Positions 14,164 to 59,559 of a stretch of DNA of 59,906 bases are shown piece after piece (position 1 is the first letter of the stretch; every line of letters starts with the position of its first letter). Under the pieces are notes generated by a model. The model saw only the letters and a list, made by a program, of their open reading frames with translations, had not been told where the DNA came from and made no database searches. The translations under genes and the position numbers were made by a program. Source of the stretch: Candidatus Pacearchaeota archaeon. Its GTDB lineage: Archaea; Nanobdellota; Nanobdellia; Pacearchaeales; GW2011-AR1. The stretch covers positions 1-59,906 of the forward strand of contig JAFCGC010000003.1 of the NCBI GenBank assembly GCA_017608305.1, in the 5' to 3' direction.

Positions 14164-14198
14164 GATTTTTATACTTATTTTGCATTTAAAAATAAAAG

Positions 14199-15608: not shown

Positions 15609-16505
15609 CTAGATAGTATGCCTCCTTTCTTGTAAAAATAATACTAAAGGTTCTGCAAAGGGCTTATCTGTAGTCAAACCCAAATAGTCTGCTTGAGTTT
15701 TATTAAATATTTGAGCCACAAGATCTTGTTGTTCTTCTACATATTTTTCATATTCTACTTTAGCAACCTTAGGATTAACAACTACTTGTTCATTAGTAGC
15801 AGGATCTTCTAACACTACTTCTCCTTCAACATCAGGAAGAGAAATATCCAAAGGATCTCTAACCTGCACAAGGACAGTCTCAAACATACTAGATAAAAGA
15901 GTCAATCTTTTCTCAGTTTCAGGAGTTACACTCAAAAAATCTGAAACAATAAAGATAGAAGAAATAGATTTACTAAAATATTCCATTGCAAAATCTATGG
16001 CCTGATTTAAATTTGTTTGTCCACCATAATTTACAGGATTGGATAATAAATCTACAAAATAGTGAAAATGTTTTAATCCTGTCTTACAATCAACAAAATT
16101 AGAAATAGCATCACTAAAAAAGAAAAATCCAATCTTATCATTAGAACTTACAATTAAGTGTGAAAGCGCAGCAACAAGTTCAGTCACAAATTCACATTTT
16201 AGTTTGTCTGTAGATCCAAAAACCATATTACTCCCAACATCGATGATAAACATAATTCTCAAATCTCTTTCTTCTTTATACTGTTTAACTAAAAGTTTCT
16301 CAGCTCTCGCACTAGTTTTCCAATCAATATCCGCAGCATCATCATCAGGAGTAAATTTTCTAAATCCCTCAAATTCCAATCCTTTTCCCCTAAAGAGAAT
16401 TCTATAAATCTCTTTTTTTAATCTAAAAGCTTTCATCATGGCTTCTAACTCATTAATTGCTTCAGGAATATCTACATTCAACTTTGATTTTTTAATTTTT
16501 GCCAT
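15609..16505 (-). CDS. DUF58-family protein (MoxR-associated)
   Basis: GKGLEFEGFRKFTPDDDAADIDWKTSAR signature of DUF58. Adjacent to MoxR and VWA genes. Confidence 0.8.
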   Translation of the reverse strand: MAKIKKSKLNVDIPEAINELEAMMKAFRLKKEIYRILFRGKGLEFEGFRKFTPDDDAADIDWKTSARAEKLLVKQYKEERDLRIMFIIDVGSNMVFGSTDKLKCEFVTELVAALSHLIVSSNDKIGFFFFSDAISNFVDCKTGLKHFHYFVDLLSNPVNYGGQTNLNQAIDFAMEYFSKSISSIFIVSDFLSVTPETEKRLTLLSSMFETVLVQVRDPLDISLPDVEGEVVLEDPATNEQVVVNPKVAKVEYEKYVEEQQDLVAQIFNKTQADYLGLTTDKPFAEPLVLFLQERRHTI

Positions 16506-29007: not shown

Positions 29008-32000
29008 TTATTCATTTAAACTTGCTGTAAAAGTTAGTGTAGATGATCTAGATCCTGCGCCTTCTGTAGCTCCTGGAACAGTAAGCTCTAAATCAACATA
29101 TGCTTCATCTTCAGCAGCATTCCATTTAAATTCAACTAAAAATGTCTCTTCAGTAGGATCAATTGGGATATTTGCCCAACTAGTAGTACCTGAAGTAAAA
29201 CTACCTGTATCTTTTTCTTGAACCTTATATCTATAATCACTAGAAGCACTTGATCGAGTATTCCATAATTGTGTTGCTTTTATATCTACATTTGCAATAC
29301 AATTTCCATCATTTTCTAATGTGAATGGATTGGGGGGGGTAGGATCTGTGGCTTTGGTTTCATCTGGTTGCATTGTTCCAAAATCAATAGTTGGGTCTGG
29401 ATTTGAAGGAGGATCTGTAATTGAAATACTTACTTCTGATTGAATCTTTAAATTCCATTTTTCACTCCAATCCCCCCACCCAACACTATCTCTAGCTCTT
29501 ACTCTCCATGTATAATAATAAGTATTATCAAATAAATATTGCAAAAAATCAGGATCAGGAAGTGTATAACTTTCATCAACAGGAGAGCCAGTAATTATTG
29601 AAATTAGTTTATAATCGTCTGGAGAACAAACAGAATCAGAACAAGAAATCTCTAATTCATATTCTTGAATATCTGCTTCTCCATCAGCATCAACACCATC
29701 CCAAACAAAAGTTGGGGTCCTATCTATATTAGAAGAATCATTAGCAGGAGAAACCAAAGTCACTGTTGGGAGAGAATTTAGCAAAACAAAAACTTCTCCA
29801 CTAGATATTTTTTCCTCATAAGCTCCTTTATGACAAGTAATATTATATTTGTAAAGCCCACCTTTTTCAAAACTCCGATTATATTCCCATAAATTAGAAG
29901 TTAAATTCCAAGACAATCTTCCAGAAACAGAATCATTAAAATCTATTTTACATCTAGAGTCCTGAATCACATCAAGATAACCTTCATTAGGGTTATTAGA
30001 AACATAAGACACAAAGCCAATATCTGCAACACCATCATAATTAAAGTCACCAGCATCTAATTCTGGATGTTTTCCAAAACTAGGTCTAGGACCAAAAGTT
30101 CCACTTGGATAAGACTTTAAACTATCATAAATTAAAACAATTCCCCCATTACTTTCAATAATAAAGGCTTGCATGTGACTTTGAGAATTATTATTCATCG
30201 CGATAAATTCCATTTCAGTGTCATCATCAATATCAATTCCTAATAAATCAATTGAACTAAAACCCTTAGAAACATTCCAAATATAATTTAAACTAGAATC
30301 ATAAACAAATATTTTAGCAGAAAAAAAACTTGTAACAACATATTTGTCTCCATTATTATAAATATCAGAAATTATAATTTCAGTGGGATTATCTCCAGGT
30401 TCAAAATCCCAATGAAGACTATCTTTTAAACCACCTGTAAAATTGTAAACAAAAAGATATTGTGAATTTCCTGATAAAATCTCCATTTCACCATCATTAT
30501 CTAAATCACCTACAGCAAGAGGAACTTTCCCTTTATTTTTCCAAAGATATTCCCCAGAACTATTTAATGCAGTAACAGAAGTATTTCCCTCGCTTGAAAA
30601 AACCACATCATCTTTTCCATCATTATTAAGATCTTCCACCACAATCTTATCAATCCCTGTAATACCAACGCAATTATAACTCCAATCCTGAATCCAAATA
30701 TTATTTTCTCCGGTATATGCTAAAATATTTTTATCTCCAGATCCCTGTACAATAACAAAATCATCATCTAACCCATCTCCATCCAAATCTCCAATAGAAC
30801 TAATTGCTAATTCGGAAAAAGTTCCTTCTTGCCAAATATTTTGTCCTAAATTATTTATAACAGAAATACTAGCAGTGCCTTCAAGAAATTCACCTTCGTA
30901 ATTATCACTATCTAAATCTCCAACAAAAATACTTTGCCCAGAACCTGTGTTAGGAGAATTAAATACATTTACTCCAAGAGCATTAAAAAATTGATTATGG
31001 GCCTCATTTATTCCAATAATTAATCCATCTTTTCTTCCTGTTTTAGATAAATCAATTGCCCGAATAGTTCTAACTTTCCCAATATTCCCTGTATCCCACA
31101 AAAAAATCCCTAAATCACCAATATCAACATTTGAATCTGTTTCAGAATAATTTGCAGTAAATAAAACTTGGGTTTTAGAATTTTGATTATCTTCATCTGT
31201 AATAGATAAAGAAGTTGAATAATTTCTAATTTTCCTAGTTTGGCTTTGATACCAGCCAGTAGATTCTACCCCATCATTTGCATTAATCCTACAATAAAAA
31301 TCATCATCATAATGTGTGTAAGTATAACTTAAATTAGAAAAATATAATGTAGATTGTGTATAATCTGAAATTGTTTGATTTAAAAAATTACTTCCATTAC
31401 TATACCACTTAACTTCTACATTTAAAAGAGGGGAATCAAAATCAGTAACATTAAAACCACATTGTAAATGATCTTTTGTATAAGGTAAAGAAGGCAACAA
31501 ATTAATACTTTGATATTCAGGAGCAGAATTTATTATTTCAAGTGTATTACTTAAAACAGTTTCACCATCTCCCAAGGCATCATTTGGTGTTAAAGCAACA
31601 CTCCAATTATCTCCTAATTTAGTTTCAAAAGAAGAAAGATTTTCAAAATGTTTGTCTGCCATTCCAGAGTCATAAAGAATTTTTATTTGTTCTTCACTTA
31701 AACTACGATTGAAAATTCTAACTCCATCAATTGTCCCAGAAAAATAATTATTCCATCCATCTTGTGCAATTAATAAAGGAGAATTAGAACTTTGAATTTG
31801 ATTTAGAAGAGCTGTATCTTTTAAATCTCCATTTAAATAAATTAAAGCAGAAGTTCCATTATAAACCCCAACAACATGATACCATTGCCCTGTTGTTAAA
31901 TCTTGATCAAGATTAACCCAAACACCTGGAATAACATTATCCTGATTAAATTGGATGCCTAACCTATCACTAGGGCCCCCCTCACTAAGCCCCCCAAACC

Positions 32001-35000
32001 TTAATTGCCAAGTCCAATCAGGATTTAATGCTTTTGCTAAAACACCAAAATTATCTCCTGTTTCATGCGCCATGCTTGTTTTAATCCAAGATTCAAATGT
32101 AATCTCATCAGTAATATCTAAACTACTATCACTGCCACAATTGATATAATCATCTCCATCAAATTTATATGCCCCCCCAACTTTTTCACTTATCTCCCAA
32201 ACAGGATTTCCATAAATTGTGGCATTATTTTGGTAAGTGGAATAATCTCTAATAATATCAAAAGTTAAACTTGTTTCTTCTGTATCAAAAGGCATATTTA
32301 AAACAGCAATTGATTCACCTCCAAGTCTCCAGTCAGTGATGGTTATGGGTGTGCTATCTGCATCAATTATTTCATAATAAACAGATAAATTTTCCAAACT
32401 AGAATTATGTCCTAAAGAAGAATTTAAAACCACATTTGAAATTACAGGATAAGTATTTACATCAACTGTTCTTATCTCTGTCTGATTTAAATTTCCAGCT
32501 AAGTCCTGAACATAAGCAACATATTCATATTCTCCGGAATCCAAACTTGTAAAATTCCTATAAAGCCTATTAAGTCCTGCATTATACGAAGCATCAATTT
32601 CTTCTTCACTCAAGGCCCTATTCCAAACTCTTAATTCATCTATTGTTCCATTAAAAAAATGTGTTGATCCTTCTTGAGTAGCACCAATTGTAAAATTATT
32701 CTCCTTATCAGGATCAAAAAAAGGACCTGATTGAATAAAGGAATCTGTGCTTTCTAAAACCCCATTAAAATAAAGTTTATATGAAGTTCCTGCATCCATT
32801 ACCACTAAAACATGTGTCCAAACACCAATTGGTACAGAAGAGAAAACAAAAGTATCTCCATTCTCTACATAAGACCTAATCTCATCTCCAACCATATAAA
32901 GCAAAAAATCCCCATCTTCAATCCCCCCCCCATCATAAACATCAAAAATATAACACTCTGAACAAGTACCTTTAGGTTTTATCCAAGCACTTACAGTAAA
33001 ATTTTCAAAATCAGTTAAACTGTCTGATTTCTCAACAAGAACATAATCATCAATACCATCAAAATTTAATCCAGGTCCAAACTTTCCTGCAGAAGTCCAG
33101 ACAGGAGGGGAGTCTCCATCTTGATTGCTTGGATTAAAGTCATAAAGAGTTCCATTATTACTCCAACTAGAACTATCATAAGCAGTTGTTCCTGTAAATT
33201 CATTAAATCTCCACCAACCAACTAAACTTTTATTCCAATCCATAAAAGAGGTCACATCATTGGCATCAGAAACACTTACATTAACATAAACACTATTTCC
33301 CCTAACAAAACTATCATCAGTAAGAGTGGGGGGGACAAATTCAATTAAAGGAGTTATAGTATCTATGCTTATTTTTCTTGTTTCTGTTTGATTAAAGTTC
33401 TCAGATAAATCCTTAAGATAAGCAAAATATTCATAAGTTCCATCACTTAAACTAGTTTTGTTAACATACAAATTCCAAACACTAGAAGCACTTTGTACAA
33501 GACTTGCTCCTGCGTTTTCACCACTCCAATTAATATATGTTGCAGATTCATTTAAATTATCTTCTAAAATAGAAACATTAACATAAATTGAAGTGTAATT
33601 TGTATAAGTATTATTATCAAAAGTTGGAAAAACAAAATTAATTTCAGGGGGAACAACATCTAATAAAATATTAAGAAAAGTACTCTCAGTTAAATTCAAA
33701 GAAACAAAAGTAGTTGAAGGATCTTTTTTAGCTTGAATAGTATAATTAGTTGCAAAAGTTTTTGCGATTTTTGTTTGAGAATATTCCATTAAAATTTCTC
33801 TATCTATTTGACCAAGTGAATTAGTATAACTTGTGAATATTAAATCATTTGTTTTATTCCATACAGAAACTTCCACATTCTCAAGAGAATTTCCTAATTC
33901 ATCTGAAACATTTACCCTAAAATACCATTTTACATCCACTGAACCTAAATTACTCCAACCTCCATCAAAAAACAAAATTTTATTTTCATCAAAAGTTGTA
34001 TTAATTAAATTCAATACACTAGTTTGAGTTGTAGAAACTGTTCGAATATCATAAGAAGTGCTATCTTGAATTAATGAATTAAATACTAAAAGCTTAGCAG
34101 AACTCTGAACTTCAATACCAACCTCATTATCCTTAATTTTACTAGAAGAAATATTGTTATTAGAAGAAGAAACTTGGATTCCTGCAATATTATTCTCAAA
34201 AATAGAAAGATTAGTTAAATTATTATTTTCTGCTGAATCTTTCAAATCTAATCCAACACTAGAATAAGAAAAAATATTATCAAAAATTAAATTATTATCG
34301 CCTGAAATACGCAAACCTAAACCATTATTAGTAAAATTATTATTAGAAACATTGCAATTATCTCCCTCCACTGTTAATGCAATCCCCCCATTATTTGTAA
34401 AATAATTTCCAGAAATCAAAAAATTATTTCCAAAAAAAGTAGGTTGAGCATTATTTGAAAAAACATTGCCAATTATTTTTACATCATCTGCATAAATTTT
34501 AAGCCCAATTTTGAATGAAGTACGATTTCCTGAACAATAACTTAAACTAGATTTATTCATAAAAAAATCAGCTCCATTTTCAACAATAAAAATAAAAGTA
34601 GGATCAGAACCCCCACCATTAGTAATATTGCTCTTAGCTTTGATTGTCATATTTCCTGTGCTTGTAACATTAATTCCAACACCCCCATCATTAGTACCAT
34701 TCATTCTCAAAGTTGAATTTTCTAAAATAAAATCACCTTCAATTGTTAAATTTCCATTTTGCCAAATTGTATTTTTTGAATTTTTAATTGTGAAATTCCC
34801 CTTATTCTCAACTAAAGTGAAATCTTCAACATTTAAGGAAATTGAATCTATTGTCAAATCCCCATCTGAAGTAACGTTTAATGAATTCACCTTTAAATCA
34901 TCATAAGTTTCATCACAAACTAAATCAGTTGTTATTACTAAATCTACATTAGGAAAAGTTGGTTCGCAAGTATTATATTGAATTATAGATTCCCAATCTC

Positions 35001-38000
35001 CATTTAAACACTCATAATCATCATTATATCTTTCTCCTTCTGCATAACAAGCATCTGGACCTGCACAATCTGTTATAGAATCACAACAAGCTTCATACTC
35101 AATCTCCATTGTAGAACTTACAAAGTTCTCCCCAGAATCATCGCCACAACAATTTCCAGTTGTTCCTGTTTCAAAAAACAAAGATTCACCATAACAACTT
35201 CCTTGATTACAAGATACTCCATTTGCAATTCCCTCTAAACCACAATCACATGCATTAGAAGAAGTATCAGGATCTATTTCATAACTTCCAGCTTCACATG
35301 CTTTAAAAGTTCCAATTCCAGATTCACAAAAATTATCACTTGCTCCATCATCTCCACAACAAGGACCAGGAGATAAAGCTCCAGCAATCCAAGTTTGGGC
35401 AATACAAGTTCCAGCAGTCTTCTCACAATATACTTGAGCCAAATCTCTATCTCTATTCTGATAAACTCTCTTTGCACAAGAACCTCCTATTCCATCTGGG
35501 CAACCAAATAAAGTGCAAGAGGCGTCTCTAAATATGGCTTGCACGCTAGTACAAGTATCATCACTATTAGTATCATGCGATGATACATAAGTTCCATAAT
35601 AAGAATAATATCCAACATAATAATCATCAACAGAAGAACCTGAACAATAATCTCTTTTATATGTTAGTTCACAACTACCCCCTAAACAAGAATCAGAATA
35701 ATCAATTAAATATCCTGCTGTATCCCAATTATCTTTTCCATCAGAATCCCAAGATGACAAAGTTGCACAGTCTGTTGAACTCCATCCATCAATTGTATTG
35801 TAAACAGATTCTTGACTGCAACTAAAATTGTCATTATTATAACAAGTAAAATAACCTATATCTACCCCTAATCCATCTTGCTCAGCACACTCATCACTTT
35901 CATCTGTACATGCCCAAGTATCATCTGGTTTAGTATTACAGTCACTACTTAAACACTCTGTATCTCCTTCACAAGAATAAGTATTTTTAGTTAAACAAAA
36001 ACCTAAACCATCACATGCTTGACTACCCAAACAAGTTAAAACACCTTCAATATCTTCTGTACCACTAGGAGCTATAAAAACACAATCAAAAGAAGTTGCA
36101 TCAGTACAAGTTTCGCAAATACCACAATTTCTTTCTCCAGAAGTAAACCATCCACAAGCTTTATTTCCATTACAATTTCCTGTTCCACAATCTTCTTGAG
36201 CACATTCAATATCAGGATCTGTACCAGAAGAAACAGCAGAACAAGTTCCATCATTTCCCCCTGTTTTTAAAGCTAAACATGCTTCACATTCTCCACCACA
36301 AGAAGTATCGCAACAAACCCCATCTTGAGAAGGACAATTTCCAGAATCACATTCAGCTCCAGAACTACAACTACAACCATTTACTTTAGCAAGACCCCAA
36401 TAAGTAGGCCCATCAATATTACAATATCTTCCACTCTCAGGTGCGGTTCCACAATGTTCAATAGATGTAGCAAGACCACTATCATCACTAACAGTTCCAC
36501 ATTCATATAAATTTCCACTATAACACAAAATTCTTTCATCTGTTTCTCCAGAATTTAAAATATTTCCATTATAACAACAACCTTCAAAAAGACCTGAAGC
36601 TTCAAAATCTTCTCCAGGATTATTACCACAACAATAATCTCCTTGAGTTGCAGTACTAAGCCATTCACCTAAATTAGTACAAGAAGGTTCTTCACAAGCA
36701 GATTCATCAGTATTTCTATTTTCACTAGACCAAGATCCAGAACTACAAGAACTTACAGTATCTTCAGTACACGATGTTTCAGTACCAGAAGAATAACAAA
36801 CACCTGTATTAACACAATCATTAGCATTATCACAACAAGCTATATCACCTAAATCTAAATTATTTTCTACAATATACTCATTATCATCATCACCACAACA
36901 TTCATCCTTTTCAAAAACAACATCATATTCCCCAACCTCTGCTTCTCCACTTTTTATCCACCCATCTAGATAACCACAATAAACTTCGCAAACAGTACTT
37001 CCTCCTGCAGCAGAATCACAATCAAGCCAAAGACCTGAGGCGCAAGCAAGATTCTCCCCAGAGATAACAATAGGAGACCCAACAACAACACCATTACAAA
37101 AACTCTCATAAATACAATCATTTTCATTATCACAACAAGCATTATCTGAAATTGATGCAGAAAAATTAGGTAAATCATTATCTGGATAAGTATAAGTAGG
37201 ATCTAATTTTCTATATAAAGCATTTTCTCCAGCATCATCTCCACAACACTCTGTATCACAATCATAAGGGTCTGTTCCAGAAGTAGCAGAACAATGTTCA
37301 CCACCAAGGTTATAACCAAAATCATTACTACAATCAGTACAAGTTAAAGAATCATTATCACAATCAATCCAATAACCTCCTTTAGAGGTAGAAAGATTTG
37401 CACAATACATTACACCATCTCCTAAAACAGTTGCATCCCCAAAATCATAACAAGTTCCATTAGAAAGAACACAATCCCTAGGGTTATCCGAAGTATTACA
37501 ACAAGCATAAATAGTTTCTCCACTCGTTGGACAAGCTCCCTCTGTTGAAGATTCGCAAGGATTAGAAGCACCTCCCAGATTAACCCTATTAAAATAAGCC
37601 ACATATTCTCCTGCATCATCTCCACAACAACTTGGATAAGTCCCAAATTCATATGAAAAAGAAGAAGTATTATAAAAAGGGCTCACATATTCATACAACT
37701 CACAACAAATAGGTTCATAAAGAGAACTCTTTGCTTTACAAGCAAAAGATTCACAAAAATTAGGAGTAATATCAGGATCACCAATAGCAAGATAACATTC
37801 ATCATTCCCCCCCAGCAAACTATAATTACTTTCATTACCAACACTTTGATTAGCACTAACATTAATCAAATCCATTGTTATGTTATTAATAACAGCATTG
37901 TAAACATTAATTCTAGAAATATTAATATCTTCAAAACTAATTGGAAGTCCTGTTGTTTTAAATCTTATTTTTAATTCATCCACAGATAGAGTTTCATTTT

Positions 38001-40140
38001 CTAAAACAAGTGCGCTCGCACCTGCAACCATTGGCGCACTCATTGATGTTCCTGATTTAATTTCTGAAATTCCATTAATTCCTAAAACTTCTATATTTTT
38101 TCCAGGAGCAAATAAATCAGTAATTAAATTTACATTAGCAAAATCTGCAATATTATCTTGTTTGTCTGTAGCTGAAACCCTAACTGCTTGAGTTGCACAA
38201 CTAGGAGTCTTAATATTAGAAGAACCATCATTTCCTGTTGCAGCAACTACAAAAATTCCATTATCCACAGCATTATTAACAAATTCAGCAACAATATTTG
38301 TATCACAATAACCATCATAACTTCCAGCACCAATACTAAAACTAATTATATTTGCATTGTTGTTAATACACCATTGTAATCCTTCTAAAACATCACTTTC
38401 ATAACCAATTCCATTTGAATCAATTACTTTAGCAACTAAAATCTCAGCCCCAGGCGCTATTTTATTTATAACAGAAGCAACTTCTGTCCCATGACCATTA
38501 TCATCACTAGCATCATTATCTTCATTAACAAAGTCATAACCTGAAACATAAGACACAACACTAGAATCAACACCAGTATCAACTACACAAATACTCTTGC
38601 CCTGCCCTGTTAAACCAAATTCATCCCTAGTTTTAAAAGAACTAATAATATTTTCAGAATCTTCTAATAATACTAAAACTTCTTGATCAGGAATTATCTC
38701 TATTTCAAGGTCTTTTAAAAGTTCTAATTTATCTACATCAAGTTCAAGAACTTCAAGATTACTCAAACCTACAAGATCTTTACCAATAACAGTATCTCCT
38801 TTAATAATAACCCTAACTAATCTATCATCAATTAATAATTTTGAAATAACTTCTTGGTCTAATTTAACTTTATTAAATTTAATCACTTCATTTATTCTAT
38901 CTAACTTACTAATAATTGTAAAATTTGTATCATTAATCACAATAGTTTCATTAGGCAAAAGCTCAGACTCTTCAATTTCTCCAAAACTAATTATTTCACT
39001 CAAAGAAGCAATATTAAATTCTTCAAATATTAAATCTACTTTAAATTGTCCATCTTCTCCAATCAATCCTAAGCCATCTAAATCAAAACTCAACTCAATT
39101 TTTTCATCTCCTAAATATTCTTCACCAAATCCTTGCTCTGATTCAGAATAAGATGTTGAAACAATAACATTATTCTCCTCGATCACTAATTTAACCTCTT
39201 GAGAAGAACTAATAATTTCTGCTGTTTCTCCTTCTAAAAGACCATAAACAAAAGGATTTTCTCCTGTAATCACTTCTTCAATTATTAATTCAGGGGGAGA
39301 TGCCAATACAGAATCTTCAACAACAGGTTCACTTGACTCTTCAGAGTCTTCACTTGGTTCTTCTGTTATTTCTTCTTCAACAACTTCTTCAGGCTCATCA
39401 AGAACTGGTTCCTCAGAGTCTACTGGTTCTTCAATAGGAATTTCGGGTTCAGGAACAGGTTCAATTGGAATTTCTGGTTCTTGAGTTATATTTTCTGGGA
39501 TGTCTGTTTCATTTATAGGGATTTCTGGTTCATCAGAGCCTGTTATATTTTCAGGCGGAATCTCTGTTTCATTTTCAGGTTCTTGTGTTTGATTTCCTAA
39601 AATATCTGGCTCTTCAACTGTTTGTGTAATCATCAAAACAAAATCTACTTCTGGATAAATAGTTTTTTCACCAATAATTCCAAACCCTTCTCCAATACCA
39701 GATATTTCTATAGAACCAATATAAAACTCACCGTAATTTGTTGGGCCAGAAATTAAATTTTCTAAGAAAAATTCTTGTTCATCACCAACATTGTCAATTA
39801 AAACTCTTGTTGATTTAGGAATTAATTCGCCTTTTTGCAAATTTATTTTTACACTACCAGTGATGGGGTCACCTAAAACAGGAAGTTCATCAATTAAAAG
39901 CACAAATCTTTCTTCAGGAGCTAGATAAATTGTTTGTTGTAAATAATTCATGAACACAATTCCTGAAAAAAAGATTAATCCGAGTAGTGTAAAAGTTAAA
40001 ATAAAATTTAAAACAGAAGTTTTTTTCTCTTTATGTTTTCCTAAATATTTAGAAACAACTTTTCCATCTCTTTTATGACTATGATAAATATAAGGACCAT
40101 ATACTTTCCCTCCTCTTTTAATATATCTTTTATAAGCCAT
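29008..40140 (-). CDS. giant (3710 aa) multidomain surface protein: basic N-terminus, TM, acidic PE-rich linker, subtilisin-like S8 domain, Cys-rich CCGDD modules, beta-helix, 2x LamG, FG-GAP/VCBS-type repeats, Ig/Fn3-like C-terminus
   Basis: One uninterrupted ORF. S8 triad contexts VVDTGVD, HGTEVAS, GTSMSAP. PbH1-like NN(F/I)xxN repeats. LamG hallmarks WWRFNE...DELRVWNRALSEEEI and DGVRIFNRSLSEEQI. GDLDGDGLDD / DLNNDGKDD / GDLDNDGEME repeats. Confidence 0.9.
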   Translation of the reverse strand: MAYKRYIKRGGKVYGPYIYHSHKRDGKVVSKYLGKHKEKKTSVLNFILTFTLLGLIFFSGIVFMNYLQQTIYLAPEERFVLLIDELPVLGDPITGSVKINLQKGELIPKSTRVLIDNVGDEQEFFLENLISGPTNYGEFYIGSIEISGIGEGFGIIGEKTIYPEVDFVLMITQTVEEPDILGNQTQEPENETEIPPENITGSDEPEIPINETDIPENITQEPEIPIEPVPEPEIPIEEPVDSEEPVLDEPEEVVEEEITEEPSEDSEESSEPVVEDSVLASPPELIIEEVITGENPFVYGLLEGETAEIISSSQEVKLVIEENNVIVSTSYSESEQGFGEEYLGDEKIELSFDLDGLGLIGEDGQFKVDLIFEEFNIASLSEIISFGEIEESELLPNETIVINDTNFTIISKLDRINEVIKFNKVKLDQEVISKLLIDDRLVRVIIKGDTVIGKDLVGLSNLEVLELDVDKLELLKDLEIEIIPDQEVLVLLEDSENIISSFKTRDEFGLTGQGKSICVVDTGVDSSVVSYVSGYDFVNEDNDASDDNGHGTEVASVINKIAPGAEILVAKVIDSNGIGYESDVLEGLQWCINNNANIISFSIGAGSYDGYCDTNIVAEFVNNAVDNGIFVVAATGNDGSSNIKTPSCATQAVRVSATDKQDNIADFANVNLITDLFAPGKNIEVLGINGISEIKSGTSMSAPMVAGASALVLENETLSVDELKIRFKTTGLPISFEDINISRINVYNAVINNITMDLINVSANQSVGNESNYSLLGGNDECYLAIGDPDITPNFCESFACKAKSSLYEPICCELYEYVSPFYNTSSFSYEFGTYPSCCGDDAGEYVAYFNRVNLGGASNPCESSTEGACPTSGETIYACCNTSDNPRDCVLSNGTCYDFGDATVLGDGVMYCANLSTSKGGYWIDCDNDSLTCTDCSNDFGYNLGGEHCSATSGTDPYDCDTECCGDDAGENALYRKLDPTYTYPDNDLPNFSASISDNACCDNENDCIYESFCNGVVVGSPIVISGENLACASGLWLDCDSAAGGSTVCEVYCGYLDGWIKSGEAEVGEYDVVFEKDECCGDDDNEYIVENNLDLGDIACCDNANDCVNTGVCYSSGTETSCTEDTVSSCSSGSWSSENRNTDESACEEPSCTNLGEWLSTATQGDYCCGNNPGEDFEASGLFEGCCYNGNILNSGETDERILCYSGNLYECGTVSDDSGLATSIEHCGTAPESGRYCNIDGPTYWGLAKVNGCSCSSGAECDSGNCPSQDGVCCDTSCGGECEACLALKTGGNDGTCSAVSSGTDPDIECAQEDCGTGNCNGNKACGWFTSGERNCGICETCTDATSFDCVFIAPSGTEDIEGVLTCLGSQACDGLGFCLTKNTYSCEGDTECLSSDCNTKPDDTWACTDESDECAEQDGLGVDIGYFTCYNNDNFSCSQESVYNTIDGWSSTDCATLSSWDSDGKDNWDTAGYLIDYSDSCLGGSCELTYKRDYCSGSSVDDYYVGYYSYYGTYVSSHDTNSDDTCTSVQAIFRDASCTLFGCPDGIGGSCAKRVYQNRDRDLAQVYCEKTAGTCIAQTWIAGALSPGPCCGDDGASDNFCESGIGTFKACEAGSYEIDPDTSSNACDCGLEGIANGVSCNQGSCYGESLFFETGTTGNCCGDDSGENFVSSTMEIEYEACCDSITDCAGPDACYAEGERYNDDYECLNGDWESIIQYNTCEPTFPNVDLVITTDLVCDETYDDLKVNSLNVTSDGDLTIDSISLNVEDFTLVENKGNFTIKNSKNTIWQNGNLTIEGDFILENSTLRMNGTNDGGVGINVTSTGNMTIKAKSNITNGGGSDPTFIFIVENGADFFMNKSSLSYCSGNRTSFKIGLKIYADDVKIIGNVFSNNAQPTFFGNNFLISGNYFTNNGGIALTVEGDNCNVSNNNFTNNGLGLRISGDNNLIFDNIFSYSSVGLDLKDSAENNNLTNLSIFENNIAGIQVSSSNNNISSSKIKDNEVGIEVQSSAKLLVFNSLIQDSTSYDIRTVSTTQTSVLNLINTTFDENKILFFDGGWSNLGSVDVKWYFRVNVSDELGNSLENVEVSVWNKTNDLIFTSYTNSLGQIDREILMEYSQTKIAKTFATNYTIQAKKDPSTTFVSLNLTESTFLNILLDVVPPEINFVFPTFDNNTYTNYTSIYVNVSILEDNLNESATYINWSGENAGASLVQSASSVWNLYVNKTSLSDGTYEYFAYLKDLSENFNQTETRKISIDTITPLIEFVPPTLTDDSFVRGNSVYVNVSVSDANDVTSFMDWNKSLVGWWRFNEFTGTTAYDSSSWSNNGTLYDFNPSNQDGDSPPVWTSAGKFGPGLNFDGIDDYVLVEKSDSLTDFENFTVSAWIKPKGTCSECYIFDVYDGGGIEDGDFLLYMVGDEIRSYVENGDTFVFSSVPIGVWTHVLVVMDAGTSYKLYFNGVLESTDSFIQSGPFFDPDKENNFTIGATQEGSTHFFNGTIDELRVWNRALSEEEIDASYNAGLNRLYRNFTSLDSGEYEYVAYVQDLAGNLNQTEIRTVDVNTYPVISNVVLNSSLGHNSSLENLSVYYEIIDADSTPITITDWRLGGESIAVLNMPFDTEETSLTFDIIRDYSTYQNNATIYGNPVWEISEKVGGAYKFDGDDYINCGSDSSLDITDEITFESWIKTSMAHETGDNFGVLAKALNPDWTWQLRFGGLSEGGPSDRLGIQFNQDNVIPGVWVNLDQDLTTGQWYHVVGVYNGTSALIYLNGDLKDTALLNQIQSSNSPLLIAQDGWNNYFSGTIDGVRIFNRSLSEEQIKILYDSGMADKHFENLSSFETKLGDNWSVALTPNDALGDGETVLSNTLEIINSAPEYQSINLLPSLPYTKDHLQCGFNVTDFDSPLLNVEVKWYSNGSNFLNQTISDYTQSTLYFSNLSYTYTHYDDDFYCRINANDGVESTGWYQSQTRKIRNYSTSLSITDEDNQNSKTQVLFTANYSETDSNVDIGDLGIFLWDTGNIGKVRTIRAIDLSKTGRKDGLIIGINEAHNQFFNALGVNVFNSPNTGSGQSIFVGDLDSDNYEGEFLEGTASISVINNLGQNIWQEGTFSELAISSIGDLDGDGLDDDFVIVQGSGDKNILAYTGENNIWIQDWSYNCVGITGIDKIVVEDLNNDGKDDVVFSSEGNTSVTALNSSGEYLWKNKGKVPLAVGDLDNDGEMEILSGNSQYLFVYNFTGGLKDSLHWDFEPGDNPTEIIISDIYNNGDKYVVTSFFSAKIFVYDSSLNYIWNVSKGFSSIDLLGIDIDDDTEMEFIAMNNNSQSHMQAFIIESNGGIVLIYDSLKSYPSGTFGPRPSFGKHPELDAGDFNYDGVADIGFVSYVSNNPNEGYLDVIQDSRCKIDFNDSVSGRLSWNLTSNLWEYNRSFEKGGLYKYNITCHKGAYEEKISSGEVFVLLNSLPTVTLVSPANDSSNIDRTPTFVWDGVDADGEADIQEYELEISCSDSVCSPDDYKLISIITGSPVDESYTLPDPDFLQYLFDNTYYYTWRVRARDSVGWGDWSEKWNLKIQSEVSISITDPPSNPDPTIDFGTMQPDETKATDPTPPNPFTLENDGNCIANVDIKATQLWNTRSSASSDYRYKVQEKDTGSFTSGTTSWANIPIDPTEETFLVEFKWNAAEDEAYVDLELTVPGATEGAGSRSSTLTFTASLNE
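30000..30960 (-). other. FG-GAP/VCBS-like Asp-rich Ca-binding repeats (approximate bounds)
   Basis: Repeated GDxDxDGxxD loops. Confidence 0.6.
31660..33230 (-). other. two LamG/concanavalin-like lectin domains (approximate bounds)
   Basis: See the motifs listed for the giant ORF. Confidence 0.7.
34960..37810 (-). other. about 950-aa cysteine-rich region with repeated CCGDD...ACCDxxxDC modules (approximate bounds)
   Basis: Six CCG(D/N)(D/N) motifs and four ACC(D/N)xxxDC motifs at recurring spacing. Confidence 0.7.
37900..38620 (-). other. subtilisin-like (S8) peptidase domain inside the giant ORF (approximate bounds)
   Basis: Asp in DTGVD near 38585, His codon 38491-38493, Ser codon 38044-38046. 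Confidence 0.75.
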
Positions 40141-42002: not shown

Positions 42003-43082
42003 TTATTTCCAATTAACATCAACATCATCTGTACGTTGGCGAGGCAATATATCAACATCACTAATTTTCATCCTAATCCCCTTTTTGAACATAATTTCTC
42101 CAAGATAACCAATAAACCCCCCATTATCAACAAGCAAAGAATTATCAAGAACAAATAATTTAGCTCCTCTCTCCTTACACATTATTCTGCACATTTCTTG
42201 TAATCTTTTATTACAAGCAACTCCTCCTCCTAAAAGTAATTCTTTTTTTCCTGTATGGGCAAGTGCACGCTCAGCTGTTTCAACAAGCATAGCAAAAACA
42301 GTTTCTTGTAAACTATAAGCAAGATCATTAAGATTATAATTAACTCGCTTATCAGCTCGAGATTTTTTAGATTTTGATAAGGATAAACCTCTATGTTTTT
42401 TAGTTAATAGTTTGGGGTTGGTGGCTGGGAATTGTGGTGGACTAACATTATTTATCTTTTGCTTAATATTTGTTTGAATTCCAGAAAGAGTAATATCCAT
42501 CCCTTTAACACTATAAGGCAACTCAACATACTTTCCATTTTTTGCAAGCTCTTCTATTTTTGGACCTCCAGGAAAACCCAAACCCATAAATCTAGCAATT
42601 GTATCAATAAAATTTCCAACACCAATATCTAGAGTCTCACCAAAAATTCTGTATTTTCCAGATTCATAAGCAATTATTTGTGTGTTTGCTCCAGAAACAT
42701 AAAGCATAACAGGATTTTTGGCCTTAGTAGTCTTACCTATTTCTAAATGAGCAATACAATGATTTACTGGAACAAGTGGCTTACCTAGTCTTTTACTTAA
42801 TTCTTTAGCAAATTTCATTCCTTCAAGTAAACAAGGAGCTAATCCAGGGCCTTGAGAAAAAGCAATTGCATCAATCTCTTTTTCTTCAACACCAGAACCA
42901 TCTAAAGCCTCAAAATAAATTTCATTTTTGTTCTGCCTATGAAACTCAGCAGCATCAGAAGGAATTATACCTCCTTGCTCTGTTGTGTAAGTACGCTTGA
43001 TATTACTCAGAACTTTCAAATTTTTCACGACACCAATTCCAAATGTATGTGCGGTTGATTCAATTCCTAAAATAGTTGGCAT
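42003..43082 (-). CDS. kae1: Kae1 (tRNA t6A37 threonylcarbamoyltransferase) carrying a 33-codon insertion
   Basis: GIESTAHTFGIG, HCIAHLE, LLLGGGVACNKRLQEM. There is no Bud32 fusion. Confidence 0.9.
   Translation of the reverse strand: MPTILGIESTAHTFGIGVVKNLKVLSNIKRTYTTEQGGIIPSDAAEFHRQNKNEIYFEALDGSGVEEKEIDAIAFSQGPGLAPCLLEGMKFAKELSKRLGKPLVPVNHCIAHLEIGKTTKAKNPVMLYVSGANTQIIAYESGKYRIFGETLDIGVGNFIDTIARFMGLGFPGGPKIEELAKNGKYVELPYSVKGMDITLSGIQTNIKQKINNVSPPQFPATNPKLLTKKHRGLSLSKSKKSRADKRVNYNLNDLAYSLQETVFAMLVETAERALAHTGKKELLLGGGVACNKRLQEMCRIMCKERGAKLFVLDNSLLVDNGGFIGYLGEIMFKKGIRMKISDVDILPRQRTDDVDVNWK
42345..42443 (-). repeat. C-rich in-frame insertion element, Kae1 copy (99 nt)
   Basis: Coding strand AGTCCACCACAATTCCCAGCCACCAACCCCAAACTATTAACTAAAA...AAGCGA. 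Homologous to 58285..58428. Confidence 0.75.
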
Positions 43083-49927: not shown

Positions 49928-51160
49928 CTAACGAGTTACAATCTCAAGCGCATCTCTATGCTTCAACCCATAATTTTTACCTAAAGCTTTTTTTGTTCGA
50001 GCATCAATTGCCTTAATAAAGTTTTTTCCAAAATCAGTATGTAAATAATATGCAAAATCTAAAGCAGTAGATCCACTAGGCAATAAAAAACAATCAGGTA
50101 AAATATTTCCCTTGCTATCTCCTAATTTATTTGCTCCTGCAGGAAATATTGCAATATATTTTAATAAATCAAATACAGCTAAATTCAAAACTTCTTGAAC
50201 ACCTGTGCCTTCATAAACATCTAAAACATTTTTCTTGATTTTTTCAAGAGCCTGCTTTTGTTTCTCCTCCAAATCTTTTAAAATCTTAAAATCTTTATTC
50301 CCAGGAATATATTCTATTAATTCAGACTTGGCTGCTTGTCTCAAAGCTAATTCAGAATCAGCACTGCAAGCATAAATCAAATAATTAGGATATTTATTTT
50401 CTATTTTTTTAATATTTTTTTCAGCATCTGGACGATCACATTTATTAGCTGCAATTATCATTGGTTTACTAAGTTTTCTTAATTCAGAAGCAAATAACAT
50501 AATTTCATCTTCACTCCATGTACTTGGTTTTTCAGGTAAATCTGAATTTCTAATAACCTCTTTAACATGTTCTTCATTAACTTTTAATCCTGAAAACTGC
50601 TTAGCAACAGCTTGTGAAAATTTGGTTTTTTCCATTTCAGCCTTTCTAGCAAACCCCTTCCAAACCTTAATTAAAATTCCATAATACCATTTATTTAATT
50701 CATCTTCTAAAAAATCTATATCTTTACAAACATCATAACCAGATGTTTGCTTTCGTTCGATTCCAGATTCATTAGCGGACGAATGAAAATCTATGATTTG
50801 CTTACCTTCAACATCTGTTTCGCCAGAAGCATCCACAATATGAATAAAAACATCTGCATTTCTTAAATCATCTAAAAACTGATTACCTAATCCTTTTCCT
50901 TCACTTGCACCAGGAACCAAACCAGCAACATCCATTAATTCAACAGGCACAAATCTATGAGAATCAATACAAAAACCATGATTTGGATTACACTTTACAT
51001 TAAATTCTTTATCAACACATTCAACTTTAACATAACCCACTCCATGATTAGGTTTTATAGTAACAAAAGGCCTATCCCCTATCTCAATTTCTGCTAGAGT
51101 CGCTGCTTTAAAAAAAGTAGATTTTCCTACATTTGGTTTTCCTATAAGGCCGATTAACAT
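49928..51160 (-). CDS. Obg-family (YchF/Drg-like) GTPase with C-terminal TGS domain
   Basis: G1 GKPNVGKS, G3 DVAGLV, G4 NKCD. Start set at MLIGLIGK, because the longer ORF-track start runs into tRNA sequence. Confidence 0.8.
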   Translation of the reverse strand: MLIGLIGKPNVGKSTFFKAATLAEIEIGDRPFVTIKPNHGVGYVKVECVDKEFNVKCNPNHGFCIDSHRFVPVELMDVAGLVPGASEGKGLGNQFLDDLRNADVFIHIVDASGETDVEGKQIIDFHSSANESGIERKQTSGYDVCKDIDFLEDELNKWYYGILIKVWKGFARKAEMEKTKFSQAVAKQFSGLKVNEEHVKEVIRNSDLPEKPSTWSEDEIMLFASELRKLSKPMIIAANKCDRPDAEKNIKKIENKYPNYLIYACSADSELALRQAAKSELIEYIPGNKDFKILKDLEEKQKQALEKIKKNVLDVYEGTGVQEVLNLAVFDLLKYIAIFPAGANKLGDSKGNILPDCFLLPSGSTALDFAYYLHTDFGKNFIKAIDARTKKALGKNYGLKHRDALEIVTR

Positions 51161-51213
51161 GAAACAATCTATAGAAAAACCTTTAAATATGTTGTTAAGT
51201 ATTTTTGTGTAGT

Positions 51214-51236
51214 GAGCCTGTAGCTCAGTCTGGTCA
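51214..51236 (+). repeat. 23-nt exact duplicate of the 5' end of tRNA-Ile
   Basis: GAGCCTGTAGCTCAGTCTGGTCA occurs at 51214-51236 and again at 51269-51291. Confidence 0.9.
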
Positions 51237-51268
51237 AAAGCTAAAGCTAGACCACCCTGAAGGTTCAT

Positions 51269-51389
51269 GAGCCTGTAGCTCAGTCTGGTCAGAGCACTGC
51301 TCTTATATGAGTGTGGTTTGTTAAAATCACTTTCTCTTGGAGATCTCTAAGAGAGGCAGGGGTCCACGGTTCAACTCCGTGCAGGCTCA
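51269..51389 (+). tRNA. tRNA-Ile(UAU) with a 46-nt intron at 37/38
   Basis: Hand-folded. Acceptor GAGCCTG/CAGGCTC, D arm GCTC/GAGC, anticodon stem CTGCT/GGCAG, loop C-T-TAT-A, T arm CACGG-TTCAACT-CCGTG, discriminator A. Mature length 75 nt. Confidence 0.8.
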
Positions 51390-51931: not shown

Positions 51932-52056
51932 GCCCCGATAGTTCAGAGGCCAAGAATTCTGCCCTTTCAAGGTAAGATTCTCTGAATCTTCCATTTCTCC
52001 TCTCCTCTGAGGATTGAAGAAAGGCAGTGACCCGGGTTCGAATCCCGGTCGGGGCG
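51932..52056 (+). tRNA. tRNA-Glu(UUC) with an about 52-nt intron at 37/38
   Basis: Hand-folded. Acceptor GCCCCGA/TCGGGGC, D arm GTTC/GAAT, anticodon stem CTGCC/GGCAG, loop C-T-TTC-A, T arm CCGGG-TTCGAAT-CCCGG. Confidence 0.85.
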
Positions 52057-58041: not shown

Positions 58042-59559
58042 TTAAGCTTTAATATCTTTAACCATATAGGTCTTTTCTAACTTATACCCAAGTCTTTTAT
58101 AATATTCTCTAACTCCAACTCCACTTATCACACTTAATGTTTTTATTTTATTTTTCTTACAGATTTTTTCAGCTTCTTGCATTAATTCCTTTCCAATTCC
58201 AGTGTGTTGCCCTAACTTCCCTATTTCGCCTAGTTTCAACGCTTGCCCATAAACATGAAGCTCCCTTATTATAGCAAACTTACCTCGCTTTAGGTCAACC
58301 TCGCTAGGGAGATCTTTTTCATTTTTTTTATTTGTTCGGAAATTTTTATTACTATTAACATTAACCTTACTTTGAGTTTTAGTATTAACAGTTTGGGGTG
58401 GGTGGCTGGGGAGTTGGCTGGTGGGACTATTTTCATCAAACACTCTCAACCTTAACAATCCAAATAAAATATCATCTTTATTTATTATTTCTAAAAAATA
58501 TTCATCACCATCACTGGCTTTGTATTTTGTGATTTTTAATTTTAAATCCTTACTAACTTTTCCTCTATTCAATGCAAAACCAATTTCCCTATAACGAATT
58601 TCTTTCAACTTACTCTTATTTTTCCTCAATTCAGCCTCAATATCCTTACGAAGATCAATTCTAATTGTCCCTGCAACAAGATAATCAGGAGGAATTTCCC
58701 TCATTACTCTCATGACTCTACAATATCTAGGAACTAATTTCAGCATCTTCATTAATAATTTTTCTGTTTGTTCTTTGGTATAAGGTTTATATTTTTTCTT
58801 CCAATAAAGTTCTTCAAGTTCTGCTCCAGGAATAACCTGACAAGGATAAAGTTTTAATTGATCTGGCTTAAATCTATTATCTGAAAAAAGCTTCTTAAAT
58901 AATCTTAAATCTTTTTGCAAATCACTTCCAGGTAAGCCAGGCATAATATGATAACCTATTTTAAATCCAGCATTTCTAAGAGCTTTTGTTGCCTCAACTA
59001 CCTCCTTAACTGTATGTCCTCTTTTAACTTTTTTATAAATTTCATCATCAATAATTTGAACACCCAACTCAACTCTTGTACAACCAAACTCCCTCATCCT
59101 ATCAATATACTCAATACAAACATCGGGTCTTGTTTCAACACAAAGAGCAACACACCTGTGTTTTGATTTTTCATTTAATTTTTGAGCAGAAATCAAATCT
59201 TTAGATCTTTTACTATTAAGAGCCTCATAAAGTTCTTTAATAAATTTATATTGAAACTTTTTACCATATTCTAAAAAAGTTCCTCCCATGATAATTAATT
59301 CAACCTTATCTGTTGGATGAATCATTGCTTGAAATGCTTTTATTCTAGCTTGCACTTGTTTAAATGCATTATACTTAACTCTTCTAGCCCTCATAACAAC
59401 AGGAGATTTAGGGGTATAACTCTGAGGCACATTTAAACTAGGACAATAAACACAACTACCATGATTACATTTCCGGGGAGGAAGCATAACTGCTATAGGA
59501 GTTATACCTGATATTGTTCTTGTTGGCTTTCTAATCTCTCCATGTTTTGGAATTAACAT
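58042..59559 (-). CDS. elp3: Elp3 (radical SAM plus GNAT tRNA U34 modification enzyme) carrying a 48-codon insertion
   Basis: CNHGSCVYCP cluster, IIMGGTF, C-terminal IRELHVYG and QHTGIGKELM (GNAT). Confidence 0.9.
   Translation of the reverse strand: MLIPKHGEIRKPTRTISGITPIAVMLPPRKCNHGSCVYCPSLNVPQSYTPKSPVVMRARRVKYNAFKQVQARIKAFQAMIHPTDKVELIIMGGTFLEYGKKFQYKFIKELYEALNSKRSKDLISAQKLNEKSKHRCVALCVETRPDVCIEYIDRMREFGCTRVELGVQIIDDEIYKKVKRGHTVKEVVEATKALRNAGFKIGYHIMPGLPGSDLQKDLRLFKKLFSDNRFKPDQLKLYPCQVIPGAELEELYWKKKYKPYTKEQTEKLLMKMLKLVPRYCRVMRVMREIPPDYLVAGTIRIDLRKDIEAELRKNKSKLKEIRYREIGFALNRGKVSKDLKLKITKYKASDGDEYFLEIINKDDILFGLLRLRVFDENSPTSQLPSHPPQTVNTKTQSKVNVNSNKNFRTNKKNEKDLPSEVDLKRGKFAIIRELHVYGQALKLGEIGKLGQHTGIGKELMQEAEKICKKNKIKTLSVISGVGVREYYKRLGYKLEKTYMVKDIKA
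58285..58428 (-). repeat. C-rich in-frame insertion element, Elp3 copy (144 nt)
   Basis: Coding strand AGTCCCACCAGCCAACTCCCCAGCCACCCACCCCAAACTGTTAATACTAAAA...AAGCGA. Homologous to 42345..42443. Confidence 0.75.

Follow-up and report, generated by a model that had tools for sequence, protein, structure and literature searches.

Short repeats lying in frame inside protein-coding genes are best known from Rickettsia. According to the summary in PMC10969869, the Rickettsia palindromic elements (RPEs; Ogata et al. 2000) are ~100–150 bp long, occur between genes and, in frame, within conserved genes that are unrelated to each other, are hairpin-capable and are translated with the host protein in fold-tolerant places. 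They are also variably present among orthologues, and no transposase has been identified for them. Prokaryotic MITEs, in-frame intragenic ones included, are represented by the Coxiella QMITE, ERIC and BOX (PMC10969869), and a woesearchaeal genome is among the MITE-richest archaea (PMC11602168). No published report of such in-frame repeats in archaea was found. BHB (bulge-helix-bulge) introns occur in archaeal protein-coding genes, namely in cbf5 of Crenarchaeota. Other cases are the GC-rich mobile clusters and double-hairpin elements of fungal mitochondria and the low-complexity insertions of Plasmodium proteins.

The window analyzed here, that is, the whole stretch of 59,906 nucleotides from a tiny DPANN archaeon, contains two genes with an extra in-frame segment. 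The segment in the Elp3 gene is probably (we estimate a probability of about 0.7) a translated, tolerated copy of a repeated and probably mobile DNA element family that is RPE-like in its behavior. The features concerned are listed below.

58042–59559, minus strand: Elp3, radical-SAM/GNAT tRNA U34 modification enzyme, host gene (505 aa ORF)
58280–58428, minus strand: insertion element, Elp3 copy (~149 nt), in frame, stop-free, predicted disordered loop
58377–58428, minus strand: 5′ C-rich block of the Elp3 copy, AGTCCCACCAGCCAACTCCCCAGCCACCCACCCCAAACTGTTAATACTAAAA, read as SPTSQLPSHPPQTVNTK, common to the Kae1 copy
58321–58376, minus strand: AT-rich variable core of the Elp3 copy, N/K/T/S-rich peptide, lacking a Kae1 counterpart in the alignments
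58280–58320, minus strand: degenerate 3′ module of the Elp3 copy, GAAAAAGATCTCCCTAGCGAGGTTGACCTAAAGCGAGGTAA, weak match to the Kae1 3′ module
42003–43082, minus strand: Kae1, t6A synthase, second host gene (359 aa ORF)
42341–42443, minus strand: insertion element, Kae1 copy, with the 5′ block at 42398–42443 and the 3′ module at 42341–42370 (AAAAAATCTCGAGCTGATAAGCGAGTTAAT)

The minus-strand sequence of positions 58285–58428 (144 bases) is AGTCCCACC...AAAGCGA and codes for SPTSQLPSHPPQTVNTKTQSKVNVNSNKNFRTNKKNEKDLPSEVDLKR; the coordinates and the peptide were thus given correctly in the initial annotation. It adds ~48 codons between two GNAT strands, with ...GATGAAAAT on one side and TTTGCTATA... 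on the other. According to the phmmer analysis, the Elp3 ORF matches Elp3 chains of the PDB (E = 3.5e-125) in two stretches that skip aa 375–425, and residues ~375–425 have no equivalent in the solved Elp3 structures. In the AlphaFold model (pLDDT 82, pTM 0.85), residues 379–424 have pLDDT < 50 and form a coil between strands 365–375 and 427–436. The Kae1 ORF also matches the PDB in two stretches (E = 1.9e-101), with an extra segment at aa ~210–246 relative to the solved structures; in its AlphaFold model (pLDDT 87), residues ~214–250 are a low-confidence coil between helices 200–213 and 251–277. Both inserts are therefore predicted to be disordered surface loops. An intein was considered for the Elp3 insert and rejected. 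Inteins have a Hint fold of ~130 aa or more, begin with Cys/Ser and end in His-Asn, with Cys/Ser/Thr as the next residue, whereas this insert has 48 aa, is predicted to be disordered, begins with Ser-Pro and ends with Lys-Arg-Gly-Lys; the Pfam matches of Elp3 are the radical-SAM and GNAT domains only.

The host frame contains no stop codon in either insert, as noted earlier for both copies. The other two frames contain 1 and 12 stops in Elp3 and 1 and 5 in Kae1, and the probability of an open frame in shuffled sequences is 0.025 and 0.14, respectively. The codon usage of the Elp3 insert is atypical. Its 5′ block uses CCC, AGC, CTC and ACC, which are rare in this genome, and both of its Arg codons are CGA (4.9% of the Arg codons in the window), while the genome prefers CCT, TCT, TTA and AGA to CCC, AGC, CTC and CGA. 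The idea that the ANN-codon-rich core is a feedback sensor of t6A/U34 modification was dropped, the pattern being indistinguishable from AT bias.

The 5′ blocks of the two copies are identical at 43 of 52 positions with four small indels. Their local alignment score is 53, against 19.7 ± 4.1 and a maximum of 40 in 5000 shuffles that preserve the C-rich and A-rich blocks plus their dinucleotides. The Elp3/Kae1 homology thus exceeds compositional bias, and a composition-only model is contradicted. Comparison of the whole inserts gave z = 15, and a blastn-short search of the 60-kb window found the Kae1 site as the sole match with E < 0.09 (E = 1e-4). No further copy, whether genic or intergenic, was detectable in the window. 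Since the small indels shift the reading frame between the two genes, the match is one at the DNA level: Elp3 and Kae1 read the common 5′ block in different frames, both of which are open. The 3′ similarity is genuine though weaker (AAAA..ATCTC, then AAGCGAGnTAA; score 19) and extends ~5 nt past the earlier limit at 58285, to ~58280. The proposal of conserved ends around a variable AT-rich core holds, with the qualification that the 3′ ends of the two window copies are only weakly alike. As had also been stated, the Elp3 copy is 45 nt longer (the Kae1 copy, taken as 42345–42443, has 99 nt), and the difference falls in the AT-rich core. This core, taken alone, is compatible with a composition-driven low-complexity expansion. 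Elsewhere in the window, a 17-aa insert of an Obg-like GTPase resembled a mini-copy by eye and showed no significant similarity to any copy; the tRNA introns have nothing visible in common with the element.

The Kae1 copy has a mosaic structure, with a 3′ half orthologous to the same-site Kae1 copy of genome L170 (37 of 42 positions identical) and a 5′ block whose nearest relative is the Elp3 copy of the window itself. The 3′ half also matches the 3′ module of an Elp3 insert of genome L037 (z = 12.3). The identity of the 3′ module with the L170 copy amounts to 83–88%, which places it in the top 10–20% of the 42-nt windows of the gene.

Inserts at exactly these two sites are present in ~37–39 of the ~120 closest Elp3 homologues (about one third) and in ~52 of 120 closest Kae1 homologues (about 45%), the homologues belonging to Pacearchaeota/Woesearchaeota. 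They vary from 9 to 95 aa and are made of common modules. The family 3′ consensus is AAAAATCTCGAGC..AGCGAGGTAAA, and in many relatives the 5′ part reads TTRCACTCGCC..GCTCGYGA and is followed by a hairpin. Collinear homology links the Elp3 and Kae1 inserts of different genomes (P0093 and P0167, for example, with a score of 98); cross-gene pairs scoring above 49, which is the 99.9th percentile of the null distribution, are enriched 18-fold. The nucleotide homology in the window and the same modules at both sites in many relatives bear out the initial pairing of the Elp3 segment with a Kae1 copy as one in-frame element. All copies examined have a length that is a multiple of three and a stop-free host frame, several loci being drawn from a protein database that holds intact ORFs only. 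Across 36 species genomes all inserts are likewise in frame, and this count is unselected for intact ORFs because the loci were found by tblastn.

Two further host genes on contig L041/L042, encoding a 207-aa CxxC protein and a 206-aa protein, carry the element. The 5′ end of the insert in the former matches a profile built without it (E = 2.4e-6), and the latter gave a tblastn match of 8e-4, its 3′ module having E = 0.011. None of the 7 aligned orthologues of the 207-aa protein has the insert, nor does any of the orthologues identified for the 206-aa protein (at least 11). Neither host has a significant Pfam match or a recognized tRNA-modification link. In addition, the Elp3 gene of L166 contains two copies at different sites, identical at 46 of 54 nt (score 65; null 18 ± 3). 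Copies that lie between genes and contain stop codons were identified in L167 (8815–8960) and in L041 (1512–1553 and ~20580–20650). Few genes hold inserts: they were found in 0 of 22 ThrRS genes, 0 of 19 class-I aaRS genes (Pfam tRNA-synt_1b) and, at one site, 13 of 44 Elp3 genes.

Searches of larger collections added no members. A search of 1.8 billion representative proteins with the window insert peptide (phmmer) returned no match, and neither did another large search, run at E ≤ 10 with 14 aligned insert peptides, whose profile was too weak for so extensive a protein database. Rfam contains no family covering the elements. A metagenome DNA scan with the pattern AAAAATCTCGAGCN{3,12}RGCGAG, which is too loose, gave only chance matches among those listed (contigs of 35–69% G+C), none of which encoded Elp3 or Kae1. 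Viral contigs were scanned five times for motifs of the element, and the single match, in the phage-like contig L040 (55% G+C), is due to chance.

The same modules could also have arisen without transposition, if the loops were ancient, hypervariable and vertically inherited. Each gene would then have gained an expandable loop once, AT-biased slippage would have built the core, and the cross-gene similarity would come from occasional ectopic gene conversion. The inserts always lie at the same few loop sites, their N/K/S-rich low-complexity cores resemble those of other AT-rich genomes, and the mosaic in the window is the outcome expected from gene conversion. However, four unrelated genes carry the modules, which are also found at two sites of one gene and in stop-containing intergenic DNA. 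In the Elp3 tree the carriers are scattered, and their presence and absence are close to random: at least 27 changes are needed for 37 carriers, compared with 31.5 with random labels, a rough count because the tree is poorly resolved. The conserved rare codons, together with the covarying hairpin described below, suggest a nucleic-acid constraint. This vertical origin is accordingly considered unlikely.

The traces of mobility expected of a transposon are few, which also agrees with vertical inheritance. Terminal inverted repeats are significant in one of seven full copies (L039, TTACACTCGCC vs. GGCGAATGTAA; reached in 3 of 1000 shuffles), marginal in two and lacking in four of the others; they are absent from the window copies. 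The inverted ends thus looked promising by eye and proved not to be robust. Neither a target-site duplication nor a shared target motif was found apart from A-rich loop codons, the element boundaries being ambiguous in AT-rich DNA. The 30 window ORFs scanned, out of 41 of at least 120 aa, include neither a transposase nor any other mobility gene, and the gene tables of the fetched loci likewise list none.

The hairpin of the relatives is preserved through compensatory base changes and includes G-U pairs. In its core, 86% of cells are paired compared with 63% in shuffles, and there are 22 double-sided changes compared with 6.7 (0 of 500 shuffles reach the observed value in either case); slid controls are paired at 27–46%. 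The hairpin covariance model has no match in the window, whose two copies have RNA fold z-scores of −1.3 and −0.04. As the covarying hairpin is missing from the window copies and their 3′ modules have degenerated, these copies are possibly old relics that no longer move.

The conserved hairpin of the relatives, RNA-like in its G-U pairs, could also belong to an intervening sequence excised from the mRNA, either a BHB intron cut by the tRNA-splicing endonuclease or one removed by other RNA-level excision; the protein would then lack the extra codons. The window contains intron-containing tRNAs (51269–51389 and 51932–52056), and since the genome uses them, the endonuclease is presumably present; moreover, Elp3 and Kae1 are RNA-modification enzymes like cbf5. 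A motif search, however, revealed not a single strict BHB motif in the two copies, and relaxed matches were at background level (7 against 2.9 and 2 against 3.1 expected). The folds of the window copies are not significant, all copies are multiples of three and open in the host frame only, and the indels of the 5′ block compensate each other and restore the frame, although a spliced intron needs neither frame nor openness. Excision from the mRNA is thus very improbable, in agreement with the initial annotation, where a BHB intron had been ranked as the less likely option.

Another alternative is that selection maintains the segment as a functional module. The insert might be a peptide, for example a basic disordered arm that is common to anticodon-loop modification enzymes and binds tRNA or a partner, or an mRNA signal co-regulating these genes. 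Both Elp3 and Kae1 have the anticodon loop as their target, the 3′ module of the Kae1 copy is closely similar to that of L170, and the peptide motifs LHSPKARDI.. and NSKKSRANVNER recur in one frame across genes and genomes. These fixed-frame motifs leave room for some peptide-level selection. Nevertheless, half or more of the close homologues lack the insert, Elp3 and Kae1 differ in the frame in which they read the 5′ block, the inserts are predicted to be disordered and are highly variable in length, the other two hosts have no recognized connection with tRNA modification, and intergenic copies exist. A selected functional module is considered improbable.

The distribution of the copies suggests mobility, and a family of short (~50–300 nt) repeats that sit inside coding genes of Pacearchaeota/Woesearchaeota-type DPANN archaea and leave the frame unbroken would account for it. 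The window has one copy in Elp3 and one in Kae1, each predicted to lie in a surface loop and probably translated with its host as a tolerated disordered loop. A copy consists of a conserved 5′ part (the C-rich block in the window, TTRCACTCGCC..GCTCGYGA plus the hairpin in many relatives), a fast-changing AT-rich core that grows and shrinks, and the 3′ module AAAAATCTCGAGC..AGCGAGGTAAA. The constraint would act on the DNA or RNA sequence and on staying open and in frame, the peptide itself being unconstrained. Copies would be gained, lost and swapped between sites, and in the lineage of the window the Elp3 and Kae1 5′ blocks would have been homogenized or derived from one recent source. The family may spread by transposition in trans or by ectopic or homologous recombination.

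A bolder version, which we regard as quite unlikely, is that the elements form a new site-seeking archaeal class or are subject to conditional removal or sensing at the mRNA level. In the former case, the hairpin and the 3′ module would be recognized as RNA or single-stranded DNA, and across hundreds of DPANN species the element would home again and again to the same loops in a small set of universal genes (Elp3, Kae1 and others). In the latter case, the elements would provide a common control point for anticodon-loop modification enzymes in reduced genomes.

If the repeat-family reading is true, in-frame "selfish" repeats extend beyond Rickettsia and a few other bacteria and also alter enzymes that are universal and essential, in a large archaeal radiation whose genomes are very small. 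The differing lengths of Elp3, Kae1 and other DPANN marker proteins are possibly repeat-derived, a point to consider when sequences are aligned, phylogenies built and structures predicted. These elements would be natural markers for recent DNA exchange among lineages, and the conserved hairpin (covariance model R2) would be a handle for cataloguing the family and seeking its mover. The inserts would also be a natural test of the tolerance of disordered sequence in the GNAT beta-hairpin and in the helical linker of Kae1.

Compared with the described systems, the archaeal element is closest to RPEs in that it is short, in frame in unrelated genes, variably present among orthologues, predicted to lie in fold-tolerant loops and probably translated with the host protein, with no transposase found in the window or in the fetched loci. 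Intergenic copies and the hairpin, also RPE features, occur in the archaeal relatives, the window copies having neither. The differences are that the element has no sequence relationship to RPEs, that its host is an archaeon and not a bacterium, that its copy number looks low and is concentrated in Elp3, Kae1 and two small proteins, and that its core is much more variable in length. With MITEs it shares a small size, a non-autonomous appearance, conserved ends and both genic and intergenic positions; unlike MITEs, it has significant inverted ends in only one of seven copies, and neither target duplication nor a partner transposase was found. Like the cbf5 BHB intron, it is a short segment in an archaeal RNA-modification gene of a genome with intron-containing tRNAs, but the Elp3 and Kae1 inserts lack the BHB motif, keep the frame open and are far more variable. 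As with the clusters of fungal mitochondria, G+C-rich islands interrupt the genes of an A+T-rich genome without breaking the frame, and the N/K-rich expandable cores in loops of conserved proteins recall the Plasmodium insertions; both cases concern other organisms and sequences, and the archaeal inserts need no translational bypassing. Finally, in contrast to pure low-complexity growth, the ends of the archaeal element are homologous between loci and genomes.

The Elp3 segment, which the initial annotation had read as an in-frame insertion element with a partner in Kae1, translates exactly to the peptide assigned to it and is flanked by ...LLRLRVFDEN and GKFAIIRELHVYG; the Kae1 copy is 45 nt shorter, as had been stated. 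The host genes and the two copies are located as follows:

58042-59559, minus strand: Elp3 gene, 505 aa
58285-58428, minus strand: insert in Elp3
42003-43082, minus strand: Kae1 gene, 359 aa
42345-42443: insert in Kae1, 99 nt

At about 30% G+C, the window is most closely related to Pacearchaeota, Woesearchaeota and 'Nanoarchaeota' genomes assembled from metagenomes, which all belong to DPANN archaea. Solved Elp3 structures match the query in two stretches, leaving out residues ~375-425, and solved Kae1 structures leave out residues ~210-246. According to the AlphaFold models (overall pLDDT 82 for Elp3 and 87 for Kae1), both inserts are low-confidence coils, the Elp3 insert (residues 379-424) separating strands 365-375 and 427-436 and the Kae1 insert (~214-250) separating helices 200-213 and 251-277. 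As modeled, each insert fits a tolerated surface loop, and we infer that both are translated.

When the Elp3 insert was compared with the 60-kb window using blastn-short, the Kae1 insert was the sole match with E below 0.09 (26 nt, 92%, E = 1e-4). The proposed common 5' block was recovered from the first base (AGTCC) as a gapped alignment with 43 identities in 52 columns; its score was 53 versus 19.7 ± 4.1 (maximum 40) in 5000 shuffles that preserved the C-rich and A-rich sub-blocks and their dinucleotides. Four indels (1, 2, 1 and 2 nt, in total a multiple of three) place the two blocks in different reading frames (PSHPPQTV versus FPATNPKLL). The likeness between the inserts is therefore real and is nucleotide homology, not peptide similarity. 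The likeness also proposed for the 3' ends is present but weak. Several codons uncommon for this genome appear in the two copies, namely CCC (8% of Pro), AGC (5% of Ser) and CTC (3% of Leu), and all four of their Arg codons are CGA (5% of Arg codons); such usage is a sign of constraint on the nucleic acid.

An intron of the bulge-helix-bulge (BHB) type had been judged less likely, and motif search, folding and open frames bear this out. No strict helix-bulge-helix-bulge-helix motif was found within 30 nt of either junction of either window copy, relaxed matches were at background (7 versus 2.9 expected and 2 versus 3.1 expected), and RNA folding of either copy with its flanks did not improve on shuffled sequences (z = -1.3 and -0.04). 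The copies are open in the host frame only (0/1/12 and 0/1/5 stops per frame), the chance of an open dinucleotide shuffle being 0.025 and 0.14. A tblastn retrieval, for which an intact ORF was no precondition, covered 36 species genomes, and all their Elp3 genes with extra sequence at this site keep the frame. An efficiently spliced intron would need no frame preservation.

Two tRNA genes were detected in the window with the Rfam tRNA model; ARAGORN found no tRNA anywhere in it:

51269-51389, plus strand: tRNA gene, 121 nt, 54 bits
51932-52056, plus strand: tRNA gene, 125 nt, 51 bits

Their lengths imply an intron of ~45-50 nt in each, and no resemblance between these introns and the insertion element is visible.

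Among the 120 closest homologues of each protein, ~37-39 Elp3 sequences have 12-95 extra residues and ~52 Kae1 sequences have 9-95 extra residues at exactly the sites used in the window. The inserts are highly variable, yet they are assembled from recurring modules, which are common to the Elp3 and Kae1 genes:

start of insert: Pro/Thr/His-rich module
within insert: LHSxxAR(D/E/G)I
within insert: VPEQVQGT or INGSEQTS
basic end of insert: NSKKSRANVNER(GK)

Cross-gene pairs exceed the 99.9th percentile of the shuffled null at 18 times the expected frequency, some being collinear along the whole insert (Elp3 P0093 versus Kae1 P0167, score 98). At the DNA level, the 3' module of the window Kae1 copy is shared with the Elp3 insert of another genome (z = 12.3), and the comparison of the Elp3 insert of L037 with the Kae1 insert of L039 gave z = 12.7.

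Further copies were sought in ~690 kb of related contigs using insert peptides and nucleotide profiles. Contig L041/L042 has inserts in Elp3 and Kae1 too, as well as in a 207-aa CxxC protein, where the 5' end of the insert, TTACACTCGCCAAAAGCTCGCGA, is nearly identical to that of a Kae1 insert elsewhere; when this insert was left out of the profile, the profile still recovered it at E = 2.4e-6. Another copy lies in a 206-aa protein of the same contig (tblastn 8e-4; 3' module E = 0.011). None of the seven aligned orthologues of the 207-aa protein has the insert, and for the 206-aa protein it is missing from at least 11 orthologues. Two hairpin-type copies, 2791-2832 and 3046-3087, occupy separate loop sites in the Elp3 gene of contig L166 (1771-3444) and agree at 46 of 54 nt (score 65 versus 18 ± 3). 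In contig L010 (1474-2235), the 207-aa protein has an orthologue with three segments that other orthologues lack; TLRAHKNLQAG, one of the three, matches TQRGHENLQAG (P0154, P0159, P0190; z = 7.5), a distinct type of Kae1 insert, which suggests that different genes have a second element family in common. In a survey of 18 orthologue groups, inserts were concentrated in these host genes, with none in 22 ThrRS sequences or in 19 class-I aminoacyl-tRNA synthetases (Pfam tRNA-synt_1b). Other in-frame insertion sites were seen in the Elp3 GNAT domain, before KDDILFG in contigs L005 and L014 and after VYGxAL in L027 and L028; the L028 insert is a (CCAACCA)n-like C-rich repeat encoding TTNHQPPTTNHQ.

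The 51-nt in-frame insert IIDFHSSANESGIERKQ (50753-50803, minus strand) of the Obg/YGR210-like GTPase gene (49928-51268; the ORF as listed begins 36 codons before the start of the orthologues) is flanked by the 6-nt direct repeat AAGCAA and is missing from two orthologues. It was rejected as an element copy, having no significant similarity to any family copy.

Nine copies, drawn from three genes, fold in a common register into one two-tier hairpin, their stems having at least seven distinct sequences. In 11 copies aligned to the covariance model, 86% of cells were paired versus 63 ± 3% in shuffles (0/500) and 27-46% in slid controls, and 22 cells had both-sided changes versus 6.7 in shuffles (0/500); because the alignment was made on the model, these figures are biased towards structure, but both controls agree. 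The model has no match anywhere in the window, whose two copies are variants that lack the hairpin and have a C-rich 5' block; this block is also nested within a hairpin-type copy of L166. Three intergenic matches, outside the building set of the model, were found:

L167 8839-8880, plus strand: copy with stop codons, inside a full-length element at ~8815-8960
L041 1512-1553, minus strand: copy with stop codons
L041 ~20580-20650, plus strand: weaker copy with stop codons

Each lies directly downstream of a gene (206-aa protein, 207-aa protein and PhageMetallopep-family genes). Given the stop codons, coding capacity is no intrinsic property of the element; the copies within genes are those that chance or selection has left open.

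In its 3' half, the window Kae1 copy matches the same-site copy of another genome, L170, at 37 of 42 positions, which equals the conservation of the better-conserved parts of the gene (73% overall, 58% third-position identity). Its 5' block scores 53 with the window's own Elp3 copy and 26 with the L170 copy. As judged from these alignments, the mosaic indicates exchange between the two sites within the window's lineage. On a neighbour-joining tree of 120 Elp3 proteins with insert columns removed, at least 27 changes were counted for 37 carriers, close to the 31.5 given by random labelling; the tree is star-like, so this is a rough indication that inserts may be frequently gained or lost. A purely recombinational history would comprise old inherited loops and ectopic gene conversion between them, without transposition. 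Of seven full copies, one had significant inverted ends; neither a target duplication nor a target motif common to the copies was seen, and no transposase was found in the scanned ORFs of the window or the fetched neighbourhoods of related loci. The intergenic and multi-gene copies make such a history less likely.

Other features of the window include adjacent GyrA ORFs, which could be a genuine split gene or reflect a frameshift or stop codon, and two very large ORFs, which are probably surface proteins:

9003-10769, minus strand: DNA gyrase subunit A, N-terminal part, 588 aa, one C-terminal blade
8332-8994, minus strand: remaining beta-propeller blades of DNA gyrase subunit A, 220 aa, TTG start
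29008-40140, minus strand: ORF of 3710 aa with internal repeats
18112-22029, minus strand: ORF of 1305 aa with internal repeats

The repeats of the large ORFs include recurring ...CATCTCCACAACA motifs, and nearby C-rich or G-rich islands, one at 28345-28385 within the adjoining ORF 27089-28480 and one at 29323-29361, would be translated as Pro/Thr linkers. In related contig L169, precomputed Pfam hits place intein-splicing domains in the GyrB and GyrA genes (12993-16205 and 17271-17972); classical homing elements thus also target conserved genes in this group.

In a limited search of the full-text literature, which is no proof of novelty, no account of the element family was found, nor any of insertions in the Elp3 or Kae1 of DPANN archaea. 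A survey of prokaryotic MITEs places one Woesearchaeal genome among the MITE-richest archaea and reports ~11% of archaeal MITEs as intragenic; it does not describe in-frame elements (PMC11602168), and membership of the present family among MITEs is not established. Most similar among known systems are the Rickettsia palindromic elements, repeats that form hairpins and lie in frame within unrelated genes (PMC10969869). The reading as an in-frame insertion element paired with a Kae1 copy is supported and the finding is real; we class the element as a new member, from the archaea, of the 'in-frame selfish repeat' kind.
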